Sequence record: OQ174500.1
Length of the DNA stretch: 64,000 bases
Source of the DNA: Escherichia phage REP1
Strand: one strand, 5' to 3'
Position 1 is the first letter of the stretch. Each line of letters begins with the position of its first letter. Positions 2,910-51,678 of this stretch are shown one piece after another. The position numbers were made by a program, and so were the translations under genes. The notes under the pieces were generated by a model. The model saw only the letters and a program-made list of their open reading frames with translations. It was not told where the DNA came from and did not search any database.

Positions 2910-4723
2910 CAATTGAAAAAGAAATTGAAGGATTGATTCATAAAACTAATAAAGACCTTTTAAACGAGAATGCTAATAAAGATTCTCGTGTTTTTCCAAC
3001 TCAACGGGACCTTATGGCTGGTATTGTGTCTAAACACATTGCCAAAAATATGGTCCCGTCTTTTATTATGAAAGCGCATGAAAGCGGAATTATTCATTTC
3101 CATGATATTGATTATTCCCCTGCTCTTCCATTTACTAATTGCTGTTTAGTAGATTTAAAAGGAATGCTTGAGAATGGATTTAAATTAGGCAATGCTCAAA
3201 TTGAAACGCCTAAATCGATTGGTGTTGCTACTGCAATTATGGCACAAATTACTGCACAAGTTGCTTCCCATCAATACGGCGGAACGACTTTTGCTAATGT
3301 AGATAAAGTACTTTCTCCTTATGTTAAACGCACCTATGCAAAACATATTGAGGATGCAGAAAAATGGCAAATCGCTGATGCGTTGAATTATGCTCAATCC
3401 AAAACAGAAAAAGATGTATACGATGCATTCCAAGCTTATGAATATGAAGTAAATACTCTCTTTAGTTCAAACGGACAAACGCCTTTTGTAACAATTACAT
3501 TTGGTACGGGAACTGACTGGACTGAACGAATGATTCAGAAAGCAATTCTGAAAAATCGTATTAAAGGTCTTGGTCGTGATGGAATAACTCCTATTTTCCC
3601 TAAGCTTGTTATGTTTGTTGAAGAAGGTGTTAATCTTTATAAAGACGATCCGAACTATGATATTAAACAGCTTGCTCTAGAGTGCGCAAGCAAAAGAATG
3701 TATCCTGATATTATTTCAGCTAAGAACAATAAAGCTATCACCGGCTCATCTATTCCTGTTTCTCCAATGGGTTGTCGTAGTTTCTTGAGTGTGTGGAAAG
3801 ATTCGACTGGCAATGAAATTCTTGATGGACGTAATAATCTCGGTGTTGTAACACTGAATCTTCCTCGTATCGCGTTAGATTCTTATATTGGAACACAATT
3901 CAATGAACAGAAATTTGTTGAGCTATTTAATGAACGAATGGATCTGTGTTTTGAAGCATTGATGTGTAGAATTAGTTCCTTAAAAGGAGTTAAAGCGACT
4001 GTTGCTCCTATTCTTTACCAAGAAGGTGCATTCGGGGTTCGTCTTAAACCTGATGACGATATAATTGAGTTATTTAAAAATGGTAGAAGTTCAGTGTCTC
4101 TAGGATACATTGGTATTCACGAATTGAATATTCTTGTCGGTCGTGATATTGGACGAGAAATTTTAACTAAAATGAATGCTCATCTTAAGCAGTGGACTGA
4201 AAGAACCGGATTTGCTTTTAGTTTATATTCGACTCCTGCTGAAAACCTTTGTTATCGCTTCTGTAAACTTGATACAGAAAAATATGGAAGTGTAAAAGAT
4301 GTTACCGATAAAGGCTGGTACACTAACAGTTTCCACGTTTCAGTAGAAGAAAATATTACTCCGTTTGAAAAGATTTCTCGTGAAGCGCCATATCATTTCA
4401 TTGCGACAGGTGGTCACATTTCTTATGTTGAACTTCCTGATATGAAAAATAACTTAAAGGGTCTTGAGGCCGTATGGGATTATGCTGCACAACATTTAGA
4501 TTATTTTGGTGTTAACATGCCAGTAGATAAATGTTTTACATGTGGAAGTACCCATGAAATGACTCCTACTGAAAATGGATTTGTTTGTTCTATTTGTGGA
4601 GAAACTGATCCTAAAAAGATGAACACAATAAGAAGAACATGTGGTTATTTGGGAAATCCGAACGAACGCGGATTTAATCTCGGCAAAAATAAAGAAATCA
4701 TGCATAGGGTTAAGCACCAATGA
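2906..4723 (+). CDS. nrdD: anaerobic ribonucleoside-triphosphate reductase NrdD, uninterrupted
   Basis: 605 aa; C-terminal glycyl-radical motif RTCGYLG and Cys4 zinc ribbon (CFTCGS...CSICGE); continuous ORF. Confidence 0.95.
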   Translation: MTIEKEIEGLIHKTNKDLLNENANKDSRVFPTQRDLMAGIVSKHIAKNMVPSFIMKAHESGIIHFHDIDYSPALPFTNCCLVDLKGMLENGFKLGNAQIETPKSIGVATAIMAQITAQVASHQYGGTTFANVDKVLSPYVKRTYAKHIEDAEKWQIADALNYAQSKTEKDVYDAFQAYEYEVNTLFSSNGQTPFVTITFGTGTDWTERMIQKAILKNRIKGLGRDGITPIFPKLVMFVEEGVNLYKDDPNYDIKQLALECASKRMYPDIISAKNNKAITGSSIPVSPMGCRSFLSVWKDSTGNEILDGRNNLGVVTLNLPRIALDSYIGTQFNEQKFVELFNERMDLCFEALMCRISSLKGVKATVAPILYQEGAFGVRLKPDDDIIELFKNGRSSVSLGYIGIHELNILVGRDIGREILTKMNAHLKQWTERTGFAFSLYSTPAENLCYRFCKLDTEKYGSVKDVTDKGWYTNSFHVSVEENITPFEKISREAPYHFIATGGHISYVELPDMKNNLKGLEAVWDYAAQHLDYFGVNMPVDKCFTCGSTHEMTPTENGFVCSICGETDPKKMNTIRRTCGYLGNPNERGFNLGKNKEIMHRVKHQ

Positions 4724-47375: not shown

Positions 47376-47393
47376 GGGCTTCGGCCCTTATCA
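47374..47393 (+). terminator. rho-independent terminator AAGGGCTTCGGCCCTT
   Basis: GC hairpin after rIIB. Confidence 0.65.
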
Positions 47394-47407: not shown

Positions 47408-47602
47408 ATGTTAGGTTATCAAGCACGAGTAAAAGAAGAATACGATCAATTAATGCTCAAAATTAATGCACTGAGCAAATTTTTAGAAAGCGCAAAGTTT
47501 CTAACAGTTAACGCAGTTGAGCAAGAACTGCTACTTTCGCAGTTCATCTCAATGAAATCTTATGCTGAGTGTCTAGAGAAAAGAATCGCACAATTCAAAT
47601 AA
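47408..47602 (+). CDS. hypothetical protein (D1 region)
   Basis: 64-aa ORF. Confidence 0.5.
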   Translation: MLGYQARVKEEYDQLMLKINALSKFLESAKFLTVNAVEQELLLSQFISMKSYAECLEKRIAQFK

Positions 47603-47605
47603 AAT

Positions 47606-47628
47606 AAGGGCTTCGGCCCTTTTGTTTT
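47606..47628 (+). terminator. rho-independent terminator AGGGCTTCGGCCCT + TTTTGTTTT
   Basis: GC hairpin + T tract. Confidence 0.7.
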
Positions 47629-47665
47629 AAGAGAAATTATGATTCCGACATAAAGGAAAGTTTAA

Positions 47666-48223
47666 ATGCAGAAAACGAATCCGGGTTTACAGAGACTATT
47701 TCAGATTCCGACATTTACCCTATCGAACAGTGACTTGACTAGTGAAATGAAGGTCAAAATTGCTGATACAGCAAGATACTCTTTAAAACAAAACCCGAAC
47801 CAGGATAAAGCAGAAGTTATCGAAAGATGCCGTATCGCTGTGTACGCAGAGTTTTTTGTGGCAGATTGGCTAAGCGGATATGTCAATAAAGGCCAAGAAA
47901 ATGTCGATGATCCGTACACGTATGCATGGGATGTTTTAGCGCATCCAAAATATTGCGGGCTTCGTGTAGAAGTCAAAACACATCAAACTGACTCGCGTTG
48001 GATTTCGGTAACAACGGGATGCAGCGGAGAGTATCCATATGGTTCTGGAATAAATTTAGGGCCCATTCTAAATCATCAAGTCGCTGACTGTATAATTATA
48101 TTCAACACTAAAGAAATTCATCCAGGTGTCATCCAGTACACTCCGAAGTTCATCGGTGACAGAGAAGACCTTCGTAAGGTTGTAAGAAAAAGCAACTACA
48201 ACGGATGGTATCTTTCCATTTAA
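47666..48223 (+). CDS. denB: endonuclease IV DenB
   Basis: 185 aa, length and position as T4 denB. Confidence 0.75.
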   Translation: MQKTNPGLQRLFQIPTFTLSNSDLTSEMKVKIADTARYSLKQNPNQDKAEVIERCRIAVYAEFFVADWLSGYVNKGQENVDDPYTYAWDVLAHPKYCGLRVEVKTHQTDSRWISVTTGCSGEYPYGSGINLGPILNHQVADCIIIFNTKEIHPGVIQYTPKFIGDREDLRKVVRKSNYNGWYLSI

Positions 48224-48227
48224 AAAT

Positions 48228-48284
48228 TTTTTCACAAAACGGTTTACATACCACAAGGACCGTGGTACTATACAACTATCAACT
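48228..48284 (+). promoter_or_regulatory. early promoter (GTTTAC ... TACTAT)
   Basis: aaaaattttttcacaaaacgGTTTACataccacaaggaccgtggTACTAT. Confidence 0.6.
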
Positions 48285-48308
48285 ACTGATACGGATTTGG
48301 AGAATAAA

Positions 48309-48572
48309 ATGAAATTTAAATTTTATTACGCTAAACATAAAATAACTGATGAGTTTGTGTCAGTTGAATATTCGAGCGATGATGAAGGCATGATTTATAC
48401 TCGCTTAGGATTATCGCATTGGGAGTCTGATCAGCCTTATTTTTCAACTCCTGAAGAAATTACACGCTTAGTTAATGGTCATATGAATGACCACTGGAAT
48501 GTAATTCTTTCAGATAGTCTTAAAGAGGCTATTAATAGTAATGAAATGAAAATCGCTGAGATTGAGCTATGA
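48309..48572 (+). CDS. hypothetical protein
   Basis: 87 aa from ATG after GGAGAA RBS. Confidence 0.5.
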   Translation: MKFKFYYAKHKITDEFVSVEYSSDDEGMIYTRLGLSHWESDQPYFSTPEEITRLVNGHMNDHWNVILSDSLKEAINSNEMKIAEIEL

Positions 48573-48757
48573 GTTCACTATGGTGGTGTTTCGTTTGGTT
48601 AATTAGTATTCCATTAATTTGTTTAACATTTACTTTTGTAATGAGGTTATTATGAAAATTTTGAATTCTGTACTTATTGCTTGCGCGTGGTGGGTTGCAC
48701 AGGTTTCAGCGGTAGTAGTTGGTATTCACATTTATTACGAATATTTTTAAAAAAGTT

Positions 48758-48800
48758 GTTTACAAGACTGTTCTTCCGTGGTACTATTACCCTATCAACT
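48758..48800 (+). promoter_or_regulatory. early promoter (GTTTAC ... TACTAT)
   Basis: aaaaagttGTTTACaagactgttcttccgtggTACTAT. Confidence 0.55.
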
Positions 48801-48815
48801 ACGGAGGAACAGAAA

Positions 48816-48929
48816 ATGAAAAAGATTATTAAAGCTATATGGAATGTAGTTATAATACTAATAGTTTTGAGTATATTCCCAATCGTTTTAATGATTGATG
48901 TATTAAACGTTTACTTTGGATTTATGTGA
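48816..48929 (+). CDS. hypothetical small membrane peptide
   Basis: 37 aa hydrophobic; strong GGAGGAA RBS. Confidence 0.35.
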   Translation: MKKIIKAIWNVVIILIVLSIFPIVLMIDVLNVYFGFM

Positions 48930-48936
48930 GGAAAAT

Positions 48937-49134
48937 ATGAAGCGTAAACGCAGTGCTTTTACATTTATTGAATGGTTTTTCGATAATATTTTTCCGGCTT
49001 TATTCATTTTCATGCTGATTTTTGCCTTAGGTTCAGTTGTAGTTGGAATCTATTTGATGACAGTAGTCGGAATTGATATTCATCAAAATGGTTTAAAATC
49101 CGTGGTTGAAACAATTTGGAACGGTGTAAAATGA
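48937..49134 (+). CDS. hypothetical small membrane protein
   Basis: 65 aa; GAGGAAAA RBS; hydrophobic core. Confidence 0.4.
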   Translation: MKRKRSAFTFIEWFFDNIFPALFIFMLIFALGSVVVGIYLMTVVGIDIHQNGLKSVVETIWNGVK

Positions 49135-49241
49135 TGAATTTGTTGAGCGGTTGGTTTTATATTCTTATGTTTTACATTGGTGCAAATTTTCCATATTGGA
49201 TGGGATGGTCAACAACTGCATTCGGATTTTATACTCCTTGA
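49131..49241 (+). CDS. hypothetical small membrane peptide
   Basis: 36 aa; ATGA overlap; not in track. Confidence 0.3.
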   Translation: MMNLLSGWFYILMFYIGANFPYWMGWSTTAFGFYTP

Positions 49242-49249
49242 GGTAAATT

Positions 49250-49465
49250 ATGAAAAGTTTTAAAGATGTAAAAGTTGGTGAAATTTTTTGTTTAGATAAC
49301 GGTGATCAGTTAATTCGTATTTCACCTCTTAAGAGCACCAGCGAGAAAATGACAGTTAACGCTACTTTAGCAAATAACAGTAATGAACGTTTCTGTATTG
49401 AAAATGATACTGAAACTTACACCGTAGAAGAATTCTGGGAATTGAGCGTCGACTGCGACGATTAA
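49250..49465 (+). CDS. hypothetical protein
   Basis: 71-aa ORF. Confidence 0.5.
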   Translation: MKSFKDVKVGEIFCLDNGDQLIRISPLKSTSEKMTVNATLANNSNERFCIENDTETYTVEEFWELSVDCDD

Positions 49466-49525
49466 TTTAATGGCCGTGTGTATTCATGCGGCCTTGGAGT
49501 AGAAAATAATTTAGAGGAAATTAAT

Positions 49526-49969
49526 ATGAAATACATGACTGTTACTGATCTGAATGATGCAGGCGCTACTGTTATTGGTACAATCAAGGGTGGTGAGTGG
49601 TTTTTGGGAACTCCGCATAAAGATATTTTATCTAAACCTGGATTTTACTTTTTAGTAAGTGAATTCGATGGTTCATGCGTATCTGCACGATTTTATGTAG
49701 GTAATCAGCGTTCTAAGCAAGGATTCAGTGCAGTTCTAAGTCATATTCGTCAACGCCGGTCTCAACTTGCGCGTACTATTGCAAATAACAATATGGTATA
49801 CGCAGTGTTTTATCTGCCTGCTTCTAAGATGAAACCTCTGACGACGGGATTTGGAAAAGGTCAGTTAGCTTTGGCGTTTACTCGTAATCATCATTCTGAG
49901 TATCAAACACTTGAAGAAATGAACCGTATGTTGGCTGATAACTTTAAATTCGTTTTGCAGGCATATTAA
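49526..49969 (+). CDS. ndd: nucleoid disruption protein Ndd
   Basis: 147 aa from ATG after GAGGAAA RBS; [10 protein letters not shown]... matches my recollection of T4 Ndd. Confidence 0.75.
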
Positions 49970-50049
49970 TGAGTAATTTCCATAACGAACATGTGATGCA
50001 GTTTTATCGTAATAATTTTAAAACTAAAGGCGTCTTCGGACGCCAGTGA
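49969..50049 (+). CDS. stp: Stp peptide (26 aa; activator of host PrrC anticodon nuclease)
   Basis: [26 protein letters not shown]; ATG overlaps ndd stop; not in track (<60 aa). Confidence 0.75.
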
Positions 50050-50056
50050 GGAAAAT

Positions 50057-50212
50057 ATGAATATTGCAAAATTATTAGGAGTTATTTCATTTATTTGTTG
50101 GATAGTAGCATGTGTTTTAACTATCTGTATTGATGCCAGCAGTGTGTTTTCGCAGGCTTTAGCCCAAGGTATGTGTGCATATTTAACATTTGTGTTGTTA
50201 TCTAATGATTAA
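50057..50212 (+). CDS. ac: Ac-like small membrane protein (acridine sensitivity)
   Basis: 51 aa hydrophobic; GAGGAAAA RBS; position between stp and 52. Confidence 0.55.
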   Translation: MNIAKLLGVISFICWIVACVLTICIDASSVFSQALAQGMCAYLTFVLLSND

Positions 50213-50345
50213 GAAAATCTTGGGCTATTCATTAGCCCTTGCTATTTTATTGATAGCGTTATATTACGGAATAATGTTCGGATTAATTCAAGTCGTGCTT
50301 TTCATTTCTGATGTTATTATGGCACTACATTCACTAGTATGGTAA
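50205..50345 (+). CDS. hypothetical small membrane peptide (52.1-like)
   Basis: 46 aa hydrophobic; overlaps ac stop. Confidence 0.35.
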   Translation: MIKKILGYSLALAILLIALYYGIMFGLIQVVLFISDVIMALHSLVW

Positions 50346-50349
50346 ATTT

Positions 50350-51678
50350 ATGCAACTGAATAATCGCGATTTAAAAAGTATCATTGATAATGAAGCATTG
50401 GCTTATGCTATGTACACGGTTGAAAATCGTGCTATCCCAAATATGATTGACGGATTTAAGCCAGTTCAACGATTTGTTATTGCTCGAGCTCTTGATTTGG
50501 CACGAGGAAATAAAGATAAGTTTCACAAACTCGCTTCTATTGCAGGTGGTGTAGCGGACCTTGGATATCATCATGGTGAAAACTCCGCACAAGACGCAGG
50601 CGCTTTGATGGCTAATACTTGGAATAATAACTTTCCTCTGTTAGATGGTCAAGGAAACTTTGGTTCTCGTACCGTTCAAAAGGCAGCTGCGAGTCGTTAT
50701 ATTTTTGCTCGTGTAAGTAAAAATTTCTATAGCGTATATAAAGATACTGAATATGCTCCGGTACATCAAGATAAAGAACACATTCCGCCTGCTTTTTATT
50801 TGCCTATTATTCCTACTGTTCTTCTTAATGGTGTTTCCGGTATTGCAACTGGTTATGCAACTTACATTCTTCCTCATAGCGTTTCTTCTGTCAAGAAAGC
50901 TGTACTGCAAGCTCTTCAAGGAAAGAAAGTAACTAAACCGAAGGTTGAATTCCCAGAATTTCGTGGTGAAGTCGTTGAAATTGACGGTCAATATGAAATT
51001 CGTGGAACATACAAGTTTACTTCACGAACTCAAATGAATATCACTGAGATTCCGTATAAGTATGATCGTGAAACTTATGTGAGTAAAATCTTAGACCCAC
51101 TTGAAGATAAAGGCTTCATTACATGGGATGATGCTTGTGGTGAGCACGGCTTCGGCTTTAAAGTTAAATTCCGTAAAGAATATTCTTTGAGCGATAACGA
51201 AGAAGAACGCCATGCAAAAATTATGAAAGACTTCGGGTTGATTGAGCGTCGTTCTCAGAATATTACCGTCATTAATGAGAAAGGAAAGCTACAAGTTTAC
51301 GATAACGTAGTTGATTTAATTAAAGATTTCGTTGAAGTTCGTAAAACTTATGTCCAAAAACGAATTGATAACAAAATTAAAGAAACTGAGTCAGCTTTTC
51401 GTTTAGTCTTTGCCAAGGCGCATTTCATTAAGAAAGTAATTTCAGGTGAAATTGTTGTACAAGGTAAAACTCGTAAAGAACTGACCGAAGAACTTTCTAA
51501 AATTGATATGTATTCTTCTTATGTTGATAAACTAGTTGGTATGAACATTTTTCATATGACTTCCGACGAAGCAAAGAAACTTGCTGAAGAAGCTAAAGCT
51601 AAAAAAGAAGAAAACGAATATTGGAAAACTACTGATGTAGTTACAGAATACACTAAAGATTTAGAGGAAATCAAATGA
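50350..51678 (+). CDS. 52: DNA topoisomerase II medium subunit gp52 (GyrA-like)
   Basis: 442 aa; N-terminal AYAMYTVENRAIP...KPVQR motif; matches T4 gp52. Confidence 0.93.
   Translation: MQLNNRDLKSIIDNEALAYAMYTVENRAIPNMIDGFKPVQRFVIARALDLARGNKDKFHKLASIAGGVADLGYHHGENSAQDAGALMANTWNNNFPLLDGQGNFGSRTVQKAAASRYIFARVSKNFYSVYKDTEYAPVHQDKEHIPPAFYLPIIPTVLLNGVSGIATGYATYILPHSVSSVKKAVLQALQGKKVTKPKVEFPEFRGEVVEIDGQYEIRGTYKFTSRTQMNITEIPYKYDRETYVSKILDPLEDKGFITWDDACGEHGFGFKVKFRKEYSLSDNEEERHAKIMKDFGLIERRSQNITVINEKGKLQVYDNVVDLIKDFVEVRKTYVQKRIDNKIKETESAFRLVFAKAHFIKKVISGEIVVQGKTRKELTEELSKIDMYSSYVDKLVGMNIFHMTSDEAKKLAEEAKAKKEENEYWKTTDVVTEYTKDLEEIK

Follow-up and report, generated by a model that had tools for sequence, protein, structure and literature searches.

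We analysed the interval 47408-50345 of a 64,000-nucleotide (nt) stretch of Escherichia phage REP1 (record OQ174500.1; the whole stretch is called the window below), which lies between rIIB and gene 52 and contains, alongside genes of host takeover, seven small and mostly hydrophobic open reading frames (ORFs) that are almost certainly real early genes. Comparison of this interval with phage records gave 562 matches, 491 of which reached a coverage of 80% or more, with an identity of about 90-97%, nearly all of them from Tequatrovirus; the closest records were KMB22 and Kha5h (both 97%). Judged by these matches, the source phage is a T4-like Tequatrovirus. We identify the interval as the D region of T-even phages itself, long known and non-essential, and not as a lookalike. 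It is presented as the reverse complement of the T4 reference, and the gene order in the window is rIIA, rIIB, the interval, gene 52, motA.1 and motA. The interval runs from the ATG of denB.1 to the stop codon of 52.1, gene 52 begins at position 50350, and all genes of the interval are on the + strand (Table 1). The first-pass annotation, made from the sequence alone, had recognised denB, ndd, a 26-amino-acid (aa) Stp peptide and an Ac-like protein, and these names are correct: DenB is 99% identical to its T4 counterpart over 185 aa and occupies the same place, between denB.1 and the ndd cluster; Ndd matches Pfam family PF06591 (Phage_T4_Ndd) over residues 1-147 with 287 bits (cut-off 25); Stp, between ndd and ac, differs from T4 Stp at one of its 26 residues; and Ac is identical to the 51-aa T4 Ac (phrog_2501, E 2e-25). 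The same annotation had reported at least four hydrophobic ORFs of 36-65 aa; small hydrophobic ORFs are indeed present, but they number seven and encode proteins of 28-65 aa.

Table 1. Features of the D region of phage REP1, with positions given in the window. pN/pS, pooled pairwise ratio of nonsynonymous to synonymous polymorphism among Tequatrovirus loci.
Feature	Position	Strand	Description	pN/pS
denB.1	47408..47602	+	64 aa, soluble helical; 97% identical to T4 DenB.1; PF21825	0.08
terminator-like hairpin	47606..47629	+	C(UUCG)G hairpin then T-run; -11.3 kcal/mol	
denB, endonuclease IV	47666..48223	+	185 aa; 99% aa identity to T4 DenB	0.039
early-type promoter match 1	48242..48271	+	upstream of orf87, ndd.6, ndd.5	
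orf87	48309..48572	+	87 aa, acidic, soluble; phrog_2390, E 1e-46	
ndd.6	48569..48655	+	28 aa, Cys-rich, hydrophobic; phrog_8851	0.13
ndd.5	48652..48750	+	32 aa, single hydrophobic segment; phrog_5011	0.086
early-type promoter match 2	48758..48787	+	upstream of ndd.4	
ndd.4	48816..48929	+	37 aa, hydrophobic; phrog_3098	see text
65-aa DUF7248 gene (= T4 ndd.3 + ndd.2a)	48937..49134	+	Pfam PF23906, 68.1 bits	0.073
ndd.2	49131..49241	+	36 aa, aromatic-rich; phrog_4135	0.092
ndd.1	49250..49465	+	71 aa, acidic, soluble; 99% identical to T4 Ndd.1	0.11
ndd, nucleoid disruption protein	49526..49969	+	147 aa; Pfam PF06591, E 3e-86	0.093
stp	49969..50049	+	26 aa, soluble, basic; 25/26 identical to T4 Stp	0.032
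hairpin GGCGUC-UUCG-GACGCC	50029..50044	+	within stp 3' end; -11.5 kcal/mol, z -3.2	
ac	50057..50212	+	51 aa; two predicted hydrophobic helices; identical to T4 Ac	0.046
52.1	50205..50345	+	46 aa, hydrophobic; DUF7396, PF24129, 78.3 bits	0.26

The T4 genome (NC_000866, T4p265-T4p275) carries ndd.6, ndd.5, ndd.4, ndd.3/ndd.2a, ndd.2, ac and 52.1 in the identical order, with 93-100% aa identity. It differs from the window in three respects: the 65-aa gene, intact here, is split into ndd.3 and ndd.2a in the T4 reference; an 87-aa ORF (orf87) lies between denB and ndd.6 in the window only; and Ndd has 147 aa in the window and 151 aa in T4. Locus tags exist in T4 for every ORF of the interval except orf87, which is annotated in many relatives, and the T4 annotation describes the products of the seven small ORFs as predicted membrane or periplasmic proteins. 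The small ORFs are therefore already known: T4 annotation has included them since the 1990s, and the literature already mentions their predicted location in the membrane.

We compared the interval with 22 other Tequatrovirus loci. Hydrophobicity, expressed as the best 17-residue Kyte-Doolittle mean (KD17), was 2.2-3.4 in six of the seven small ORFs and only 1.4 in ndd.2; by this prediction, six of the seven are small (less than about 70 aa) and have one or more hydrophobic helices that span the membrane, and ndd.2 is borderline. Hydrophobicity alone is weak evidence, because 11-17% of the ATG-initiated ORFs of 25-80 aa called mechanically in this AT-rich DNA also have a KD17 of at least 2.0. 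It is by conservation and selection, and not by hydrophobicity, that the small ORFs exceed chance. Start, frame and length are kept in 22/22 loci for ndd.5, ndd.4 and 52.1, in 21/22 for the 65-aa gene and ndd.2, and in 20/22 for ndd.6, and Ac has 51 or 52 aa in all 22. The in-frame pN/pS of ndd.6, ndd.5, the 65-aa gene, ndd.2 and ac lies between 0.046 and 0.13 (Table 1), against values of at least 0.8 in the shifted frames. Each small ORF matches a PHROG family, and two (the 65-aa gene and 52.1) also match a Pfam DUF above the cut-off. NCBIfam gave no match for any small ORF, Rfam gave none within the interval, and word-indexed protein searches recovered close relatives only. Purifying selection acts on the small ORFs, which are genuine coding genes and not artefacts of base composition.

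Most of these families extend beyond Tequatrovirus. A search with Ndd identified 31 loci of other T4-like genera (Ndd 47-65% identical), in which the order rIIB-denB-ndd-52 is kept, and iterative profile searches were run over the ORFs of these loci. The ndd.4 family was found in 32/38 loci, with the motif KK.LKAIWN..VL.IFP.V..ID, and the DUF7248 family of the 65-aa gene in 20/38, with a basic N-terminus, one hydrophobic segment and a C-terminal GLKSVVE.IWNG. Members of the ndd.6 family (WCLIW..CIP.IC.CF) and of the ndd.2 family (G..AFYVGFN.PYWLG) occur in several genera, and the 52.1 family (YYG...VLFISDVIM..GSLIW) was present in 28/31 non-Tequatrovirus loci. For ndd.5, profile searches of the other-genus loci recovered no relatives outside Tequatrovirus. 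The retention of residue-specific motifs across genera argues against leader peptides or accidental ORFs. Conservation across T-even phages, which the first-pass annotation had put forward as a check, is thus borne out by intact frames in at least 20/22 Tequatrovirus loci and by five families with motifs in other genera; its remark that such genes are easily missed also holds, as only about 3 of the 17 annotated Tequatrovirus records inspected have coding sequences (CDSs) for ndd.6, stp or 52.1.

The 65-aa gene is a clear member of DUF7248 (68.1 bits against a cut-off of 27), in which the hydrophobic segment precedes the conserved C-terminal motif. In the T4 reference (L002 in our set; NC_000866 166432-166628), one base is missing in codon 2, where the sequence reads ATGAACGT rather than the ATGAAGCGT or ATGAAACGT of the other 21 loci; the missing base yields the out-of-frame ndd.3 (26 aa) and the truncated ndd.2a (40 aa). 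This deletion was found in only 3 of 410 matching records (X75802, AF158101 and NC_000866), all of which represent one original sequence, and the extra base is present in independently sequenced T4 genomes (T4T, KJ477684/5 and OZ209023/57). The ndd.3 gene therefore owes its existence, most probably, to an artefact in the reference. The tracing of the ndd.3/ndd.2a split to one missing base is a new detail. Searched against 1.84 billion representatives, the DUF7248 profile recovered 32 clusters, all but three of which consist of proteins of 25-81 aa, and the 16 small-protein clusters inspected have the same architecture as the DUF7248 gene. The remaining three, tape-measure-like proteins of 820-976 aa (P0027, P0029 and P0032), match through 9-10 tandem WNGIKSV-type repeats and were regarded as spurious, probably through low-complexity coincidence. 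Shigella phage Sf25 carries a natural in-frame fusion of 62 aa (gp120; P0007), which joins the N-terminal half of Ndd.4 to the C-terminal half of Ndd.2a and matches both PF26889 and PF23906.

The 52.1 product aligns with DUF7396 over its entire length (positions 1-46 of 46; 78.3 bits against a cut-off of 27). The stop codon of 52.1 lies 4 nt before the ATG of gene 52, and wherever a homolog was found (28/31 non-Tequatrovirus and 22/22 Tequatrovirus loci), gene 52 followed it directly. The JS98-like and Gaprivervirus-like versions of 52.1 are 83-89% identical to the protein of the window, against 69-83% for gp52 and 60-64% for Ndd. The tight linkage of 52.1 to gene 52 across genera is a new detail.

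Ac is predicted to consist of two hydrophobic helices joined by a DASSVFSQ loop. Some phages carry an Ac paralog, which is also a new detail: in slur07, vB_SsoM_113, PhiZZ6 and ECML-134, a second, diverged 51-aa Ac-like gene (MKFVHGIAFFCWFF...ETSVFLQASAQG...) lies between stp and ac (loci L047, L049, L050, at 2938-3093, and L051, at 3196-3351). A profile built without this paralog recovered Ac relatives in Tequatrovirus only; once the paralog was added, relatives of 47-49 aa were found in two other lineages, in JS98-like loci L007 and L010 and in L020/L023. Common to all of them is a (D/E)(A/T/S)SV.SQ loop between two hydrophobic helices. A comparison of Ac with PDB sequences gave no match and hence no solved structure. 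Ac is also the member of the set for which a phenotype has been described. When it is expressed from a plasmid, E. coli becomes more sensitive to acriflavine and ampicillin, and T4 without ac grows in the presence of acriflavine; a block of the AcrAB-TolC pump was proposed by the authors (bioRxiv 10.1101/2025.06.30.662393) and repeated as an assumption in a 2026 PNAS paper (PMC13250531).

The expression signals of the interval are of the early type. The pattern GTTTAC-N15-TGGTA (extended T4 early consensus) occurs nine times in the window, always on the + strand, against 0.13 expected, and two of these sites lie within the interval; the first reads GTTTACA-N-GTGGTACTAT. A generic sigma-70 promoter scan found 16 sites against 12.6 expected, which is not above chance; of the two patterns, the extended early consensus alone was informative. 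The first-pass annotation had credited several of the small ORFs with strong ribosome-binding sites and with early promoters of their own. The statement on early promoters is borne out for two sites. As for ribosome-binding sites, ndd.5 (GAGG), ndd.4 (GGAGG), the 65-aa gene and ac are preceded by Shine-Dalgarno cores of 4-5 nt (GAGG or GGAGG), whereas ndd.6, ndd.2, stp and 52.1 show overlap with the upstream stop instead. The overlap takes the form of ATGA for ndd.6 with orf87 and for ndd.2 with the 65-aa gene (as also for ndd.5 with ndd.6), of TAATG for stp with ndd, and of 8 nt for 52.1 with ac, which suggests translational coupling of ndd.6, ndd.2, stp and 52.1. RNA sequencing in T4 places every small ORF in the early class (PMC9697503 Table S2). 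The two promoter matches and the early expression of the T4 orthologs together assign the small ORFs to the T4 early genes.

Three hairpins with a C(UUCG)G tetraloop were found (47377-47392, 47606-47621 and 50029-50044). The second came from a terminator scan, as part of the terminator-like element listed in Table 1, and Kha5h has an annotated terminator at the equivalent site. The third lies within the final codons of stp, just ahead of the Shine-Dalgarno sequence of ac. It is kept across genera, with two variants (G-U and UUUG-loop), whereas the T6-type stp allele, which has a different C-terminus of 28 aa, lacks it. The conservation of the Stp C-terminus may therefore partly reflect a constraint on the RNA. 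The first 10 residues of Stp are identical in every stp homolog recovered, those of other genera included. Stp of T4, which the stp product of the window resembles in both sequence and place, activates the host anticodon nuclease PrrC by acting on EcoprrI. It differs from the seven small proteins in being soluble and basic (grand average of hydropathy -1.07), and is not a membrane peptide.

DenB.1 matches the Pfam family PF21825, 'crAss001_48 related protein' (E 5e-19), which links a T4 early protein to a family named for a crAss-like phage, and the denB.1 family was found in 26/38 T4-like loci. A 109-aa ORF (RB32ORF268c-like) lies between denB.1 and denB in 9/22 loci (L004, L005, L041-L044, L049, L051 and L052), in which denB is annotated as a shorter CDS of 477 nt, and a 68-aa ORF (RB32ORF266c-like) lies between denB and ndd.6 in two (L046 and L049). 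Intact orf87, of which there are two alleles of about 70% nt identity, is present in 20/22 Tequatrovirus loci and absent from T4 and RB27; its AlphaFold2 (AF2) model, with a predicted local distance difference test (pLDDT) score of 89.6, matched no known fold. The D region thus displays presence/absence polymorphism. No Pfam model exists for DenB, to which dC-specific cleavage of single-stranded DNA is ascribed (PMC2175332). Ndd, which disrupts the host nucleoid, has 147 aa in the window, Kha5h, PhiZZ6 and phiD1; T4 Ndd and that of the remaining loci are 150-152 aa long, owing to an indel block near residues 45-55 (SEFDGSCVS versus SKLDGRPFSNPCVS).

What the seven small proteins do is less firmly indicated than their existence. 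We consider it somewhat better than an even chance (roughly 55%) that they become inserted in the inner membrane of the host and modulate particular host envelope proteins, Ac being the example. The D region would be read from left to right as early mRNA, through readthrough from the rII transcript and from the two internal early promoters, alongside the takeover genes denB, ndd and stp. The seven proteins would be made in the first minutes of infection and then inserted into the host inner membrane, where each would bind and alter a particular host envelope protein or process, in the manner of bacterial small membrane-protein regulators. Ac would be the worked example, with more acridine accumulating in infected cells, most likely as a result of impaired efflux. 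The bacterial precedent is AcrZ, a small membrane protein that binds AcrB; proteins of this kind, the subject of a review (PMC12648545), regulate transporters and signalling complexes. Like them, the seven proteins are short (28-65 aa) and have one or two hydrophobic helices, their proposed mode of action is binding to a larger membrane complex, and Ac is proposed to act on the very pump that AcrZ binds. The seven differ in being phage-encoded and early; the effect of Ac on efflux would be inhibitory, and its partner is proposed only. Previous work on deletions points in the same general direction: the sa-delta-9 deletion, which extends from 52.1 through denB, abolishes the stimulation of phospholipid synthesis after infection, and Kutter et al. 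(2018) noted that several of the deleted genes were thought to be membrane-localised from their hydrophobic composition (PMC6071114). Host-membrane modulation is therefore plausible, with phenotype evidence for Ac; for the other six, we infer it, as we do membrane insertion, the existence of host targets and their identity. More tentatively, and less likely than not, the seven peptides might form a toolkit of inhibitors or activators, each directed at a different inner-membrane machine of the host, in which one peptide would account for the stimulated phosphatidylglycerol synthesis missing from sa-delta-9, Ac would act as a direct blocker of AcrAB-TolC and 52.1 would link the phage topoisomerase to the membrane.

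Several observations weigh against modulation of the host membrane by all seven proteins. The membrane status of ndd.2, which is aromatic-rich and only marginally hydrophobic, is uncertain. The within-genus selection signal is weak for two genes with few substitutions, 52.1 (0.26) and ndd.4 (0.69, a value based on just 6 variable sites and uninformative). The AF2 model of 52.1 is one continuous 44-residue helix (pLDDT 96.8), which does not discriminate between a hairpin and a single pass. A time-course proteome of T4 detected Ndd and Ndd.1, the latter early, and no product of any of the seven (PMC9697503 Table S2), and a literature search for T4 ribosome profiling found none; translation of the seven is thus presumed, with genetic evidence for ac only. 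No sequence similarity was detected between Ac and AcrZ. No binding partner is known for any of the seven, AcrAB-TolC being a proposal in the case of Ac, and our search of the literature on ndd.2 to ndd.6 and 52.1 found nothing functional. Finally, loss of the whole region costs the phage little on laboratory strains; deletions of the sa-delta-9 and GT7 types extend from 52.1 up to and including denB or rIIB (PMC6071114, PMC9712115).

Other explanations have to be set against these data. One possibility, that AT-rich DNA has produced the small ORFs by chance or that they encode leader peptides of irrelevant sequence, would agree with the hydrophobic appearance of some mechanical ORFs in the window and with the failure of mass spectrometry to detect the proteins, but it is rejected on the conservation data: frames intact in 20-22 of 22 loci, a pN/pS of 0.05-0.13 for five of the seven ORFs, as opposed to the out-of-frame values, and residue motifs kept across genera. 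Point mutants of ac, in addition, have a phenotype, and this explanation is effectively excluded. It is unlikely, although with better credentials, that the small membrane proteins serve the cycle of the phage itself (superinfection exclusion, envelope integrity or lysis timing), in the manner of Imm, Sp, RI, RIII and RIIA/B. The ORFs lie directly downstream of the membrane-associated rIIA/rIIB and are expressed early, the conserved C-terminal segment of DUF7248 should face outward if the basic N-terminus is inside, which fits a periplasmic role, and T4 Imm and Sp provide precedents. Imm, Sp, RI and RIII resemble the seven in being small early proteins of the inner membrane or periplasm that are non-essential in the laboratory, but they have 80-100 aa and defined exclusion or lysis-inhibition phenotypes, and PHROG and Pfam searches revealed no sequence relation. 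The phenotype of Ac, moreover, is drug accumulation and is reproduced by Ac alone in uninfected cells, and the literature examined assigns neither an exclusion nor a lysis phenotype to deletions of the D region.

A role as counter-defence factors, or as triggers sensed by membrane-bound abortive-infection or exclusion systems of prophages and plasmids, seems distinctly unlikely. The neighbouring rIIA/B (RexAB) and Stp (EcoprrI-PrrC) do interact with defences, the small genes are dispensable on laboratory strains, and the turnover seen in orf87, the Ac paralog and the extra ORFs around denB is of the kind that such a role would produce; in a transposon screen, T4 accessory genes were often conditionally essential against defence systems, but that report, as far as examined, names no small ORF of the D region (bioRxiv 10.1101/2025.11.20.689424). 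Arms-race genes seldom show the strong conservation, in place of diversification, that is seen in these peptides, and 52.1 and ndd.4 occur almost universally in T4-like genera with different hosts. For 52.1 alone, the gene order invites a further explanation, namely that it is a membrane partner of the topoisomerase subunit gp52, involved in tethering or assembly, and not a host modulator. Its position next to gene 52 wherever it was found, with a spacing of 4 nt in the window, and an identity that in JS98-like and Gaprivervirus-like loci exceeds those of gp52 and Ndd would fit such a partnership. Conserved gene order alone is no proof of interaction, however, and phages without 52.1 (sa-delta-9, GT7) are viable, whereas gene 52 mutants have a DNA-delay phenotype; we consider this explanation improbable. 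Modulation of host envelope proteins is the interpretation that we favour.

The observation is real but ordinary, since the notion of membrane-active 'monkey wrenches' in this region is decades old. What is gained is a correction of the T4 ndd.3/ndd.2a gene model, a set of conserved motifs and evidence that most of these genes are lost when T4-like genomes are annotated automatically. Should a block of AcrAB-TolC by Ac prove true, Ac would be an efflux-pump inhibitor of natural origin. Members of at least five of the seven families occur outside Tequatrovirus, and 52.1 and ndd.4 are near-universal among the T4-like loci sampled; these small ORFs are among the most conserved genes annotated without a function in the best-studied phage. 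The finding points to a real and tractable gap in the biology of T4.

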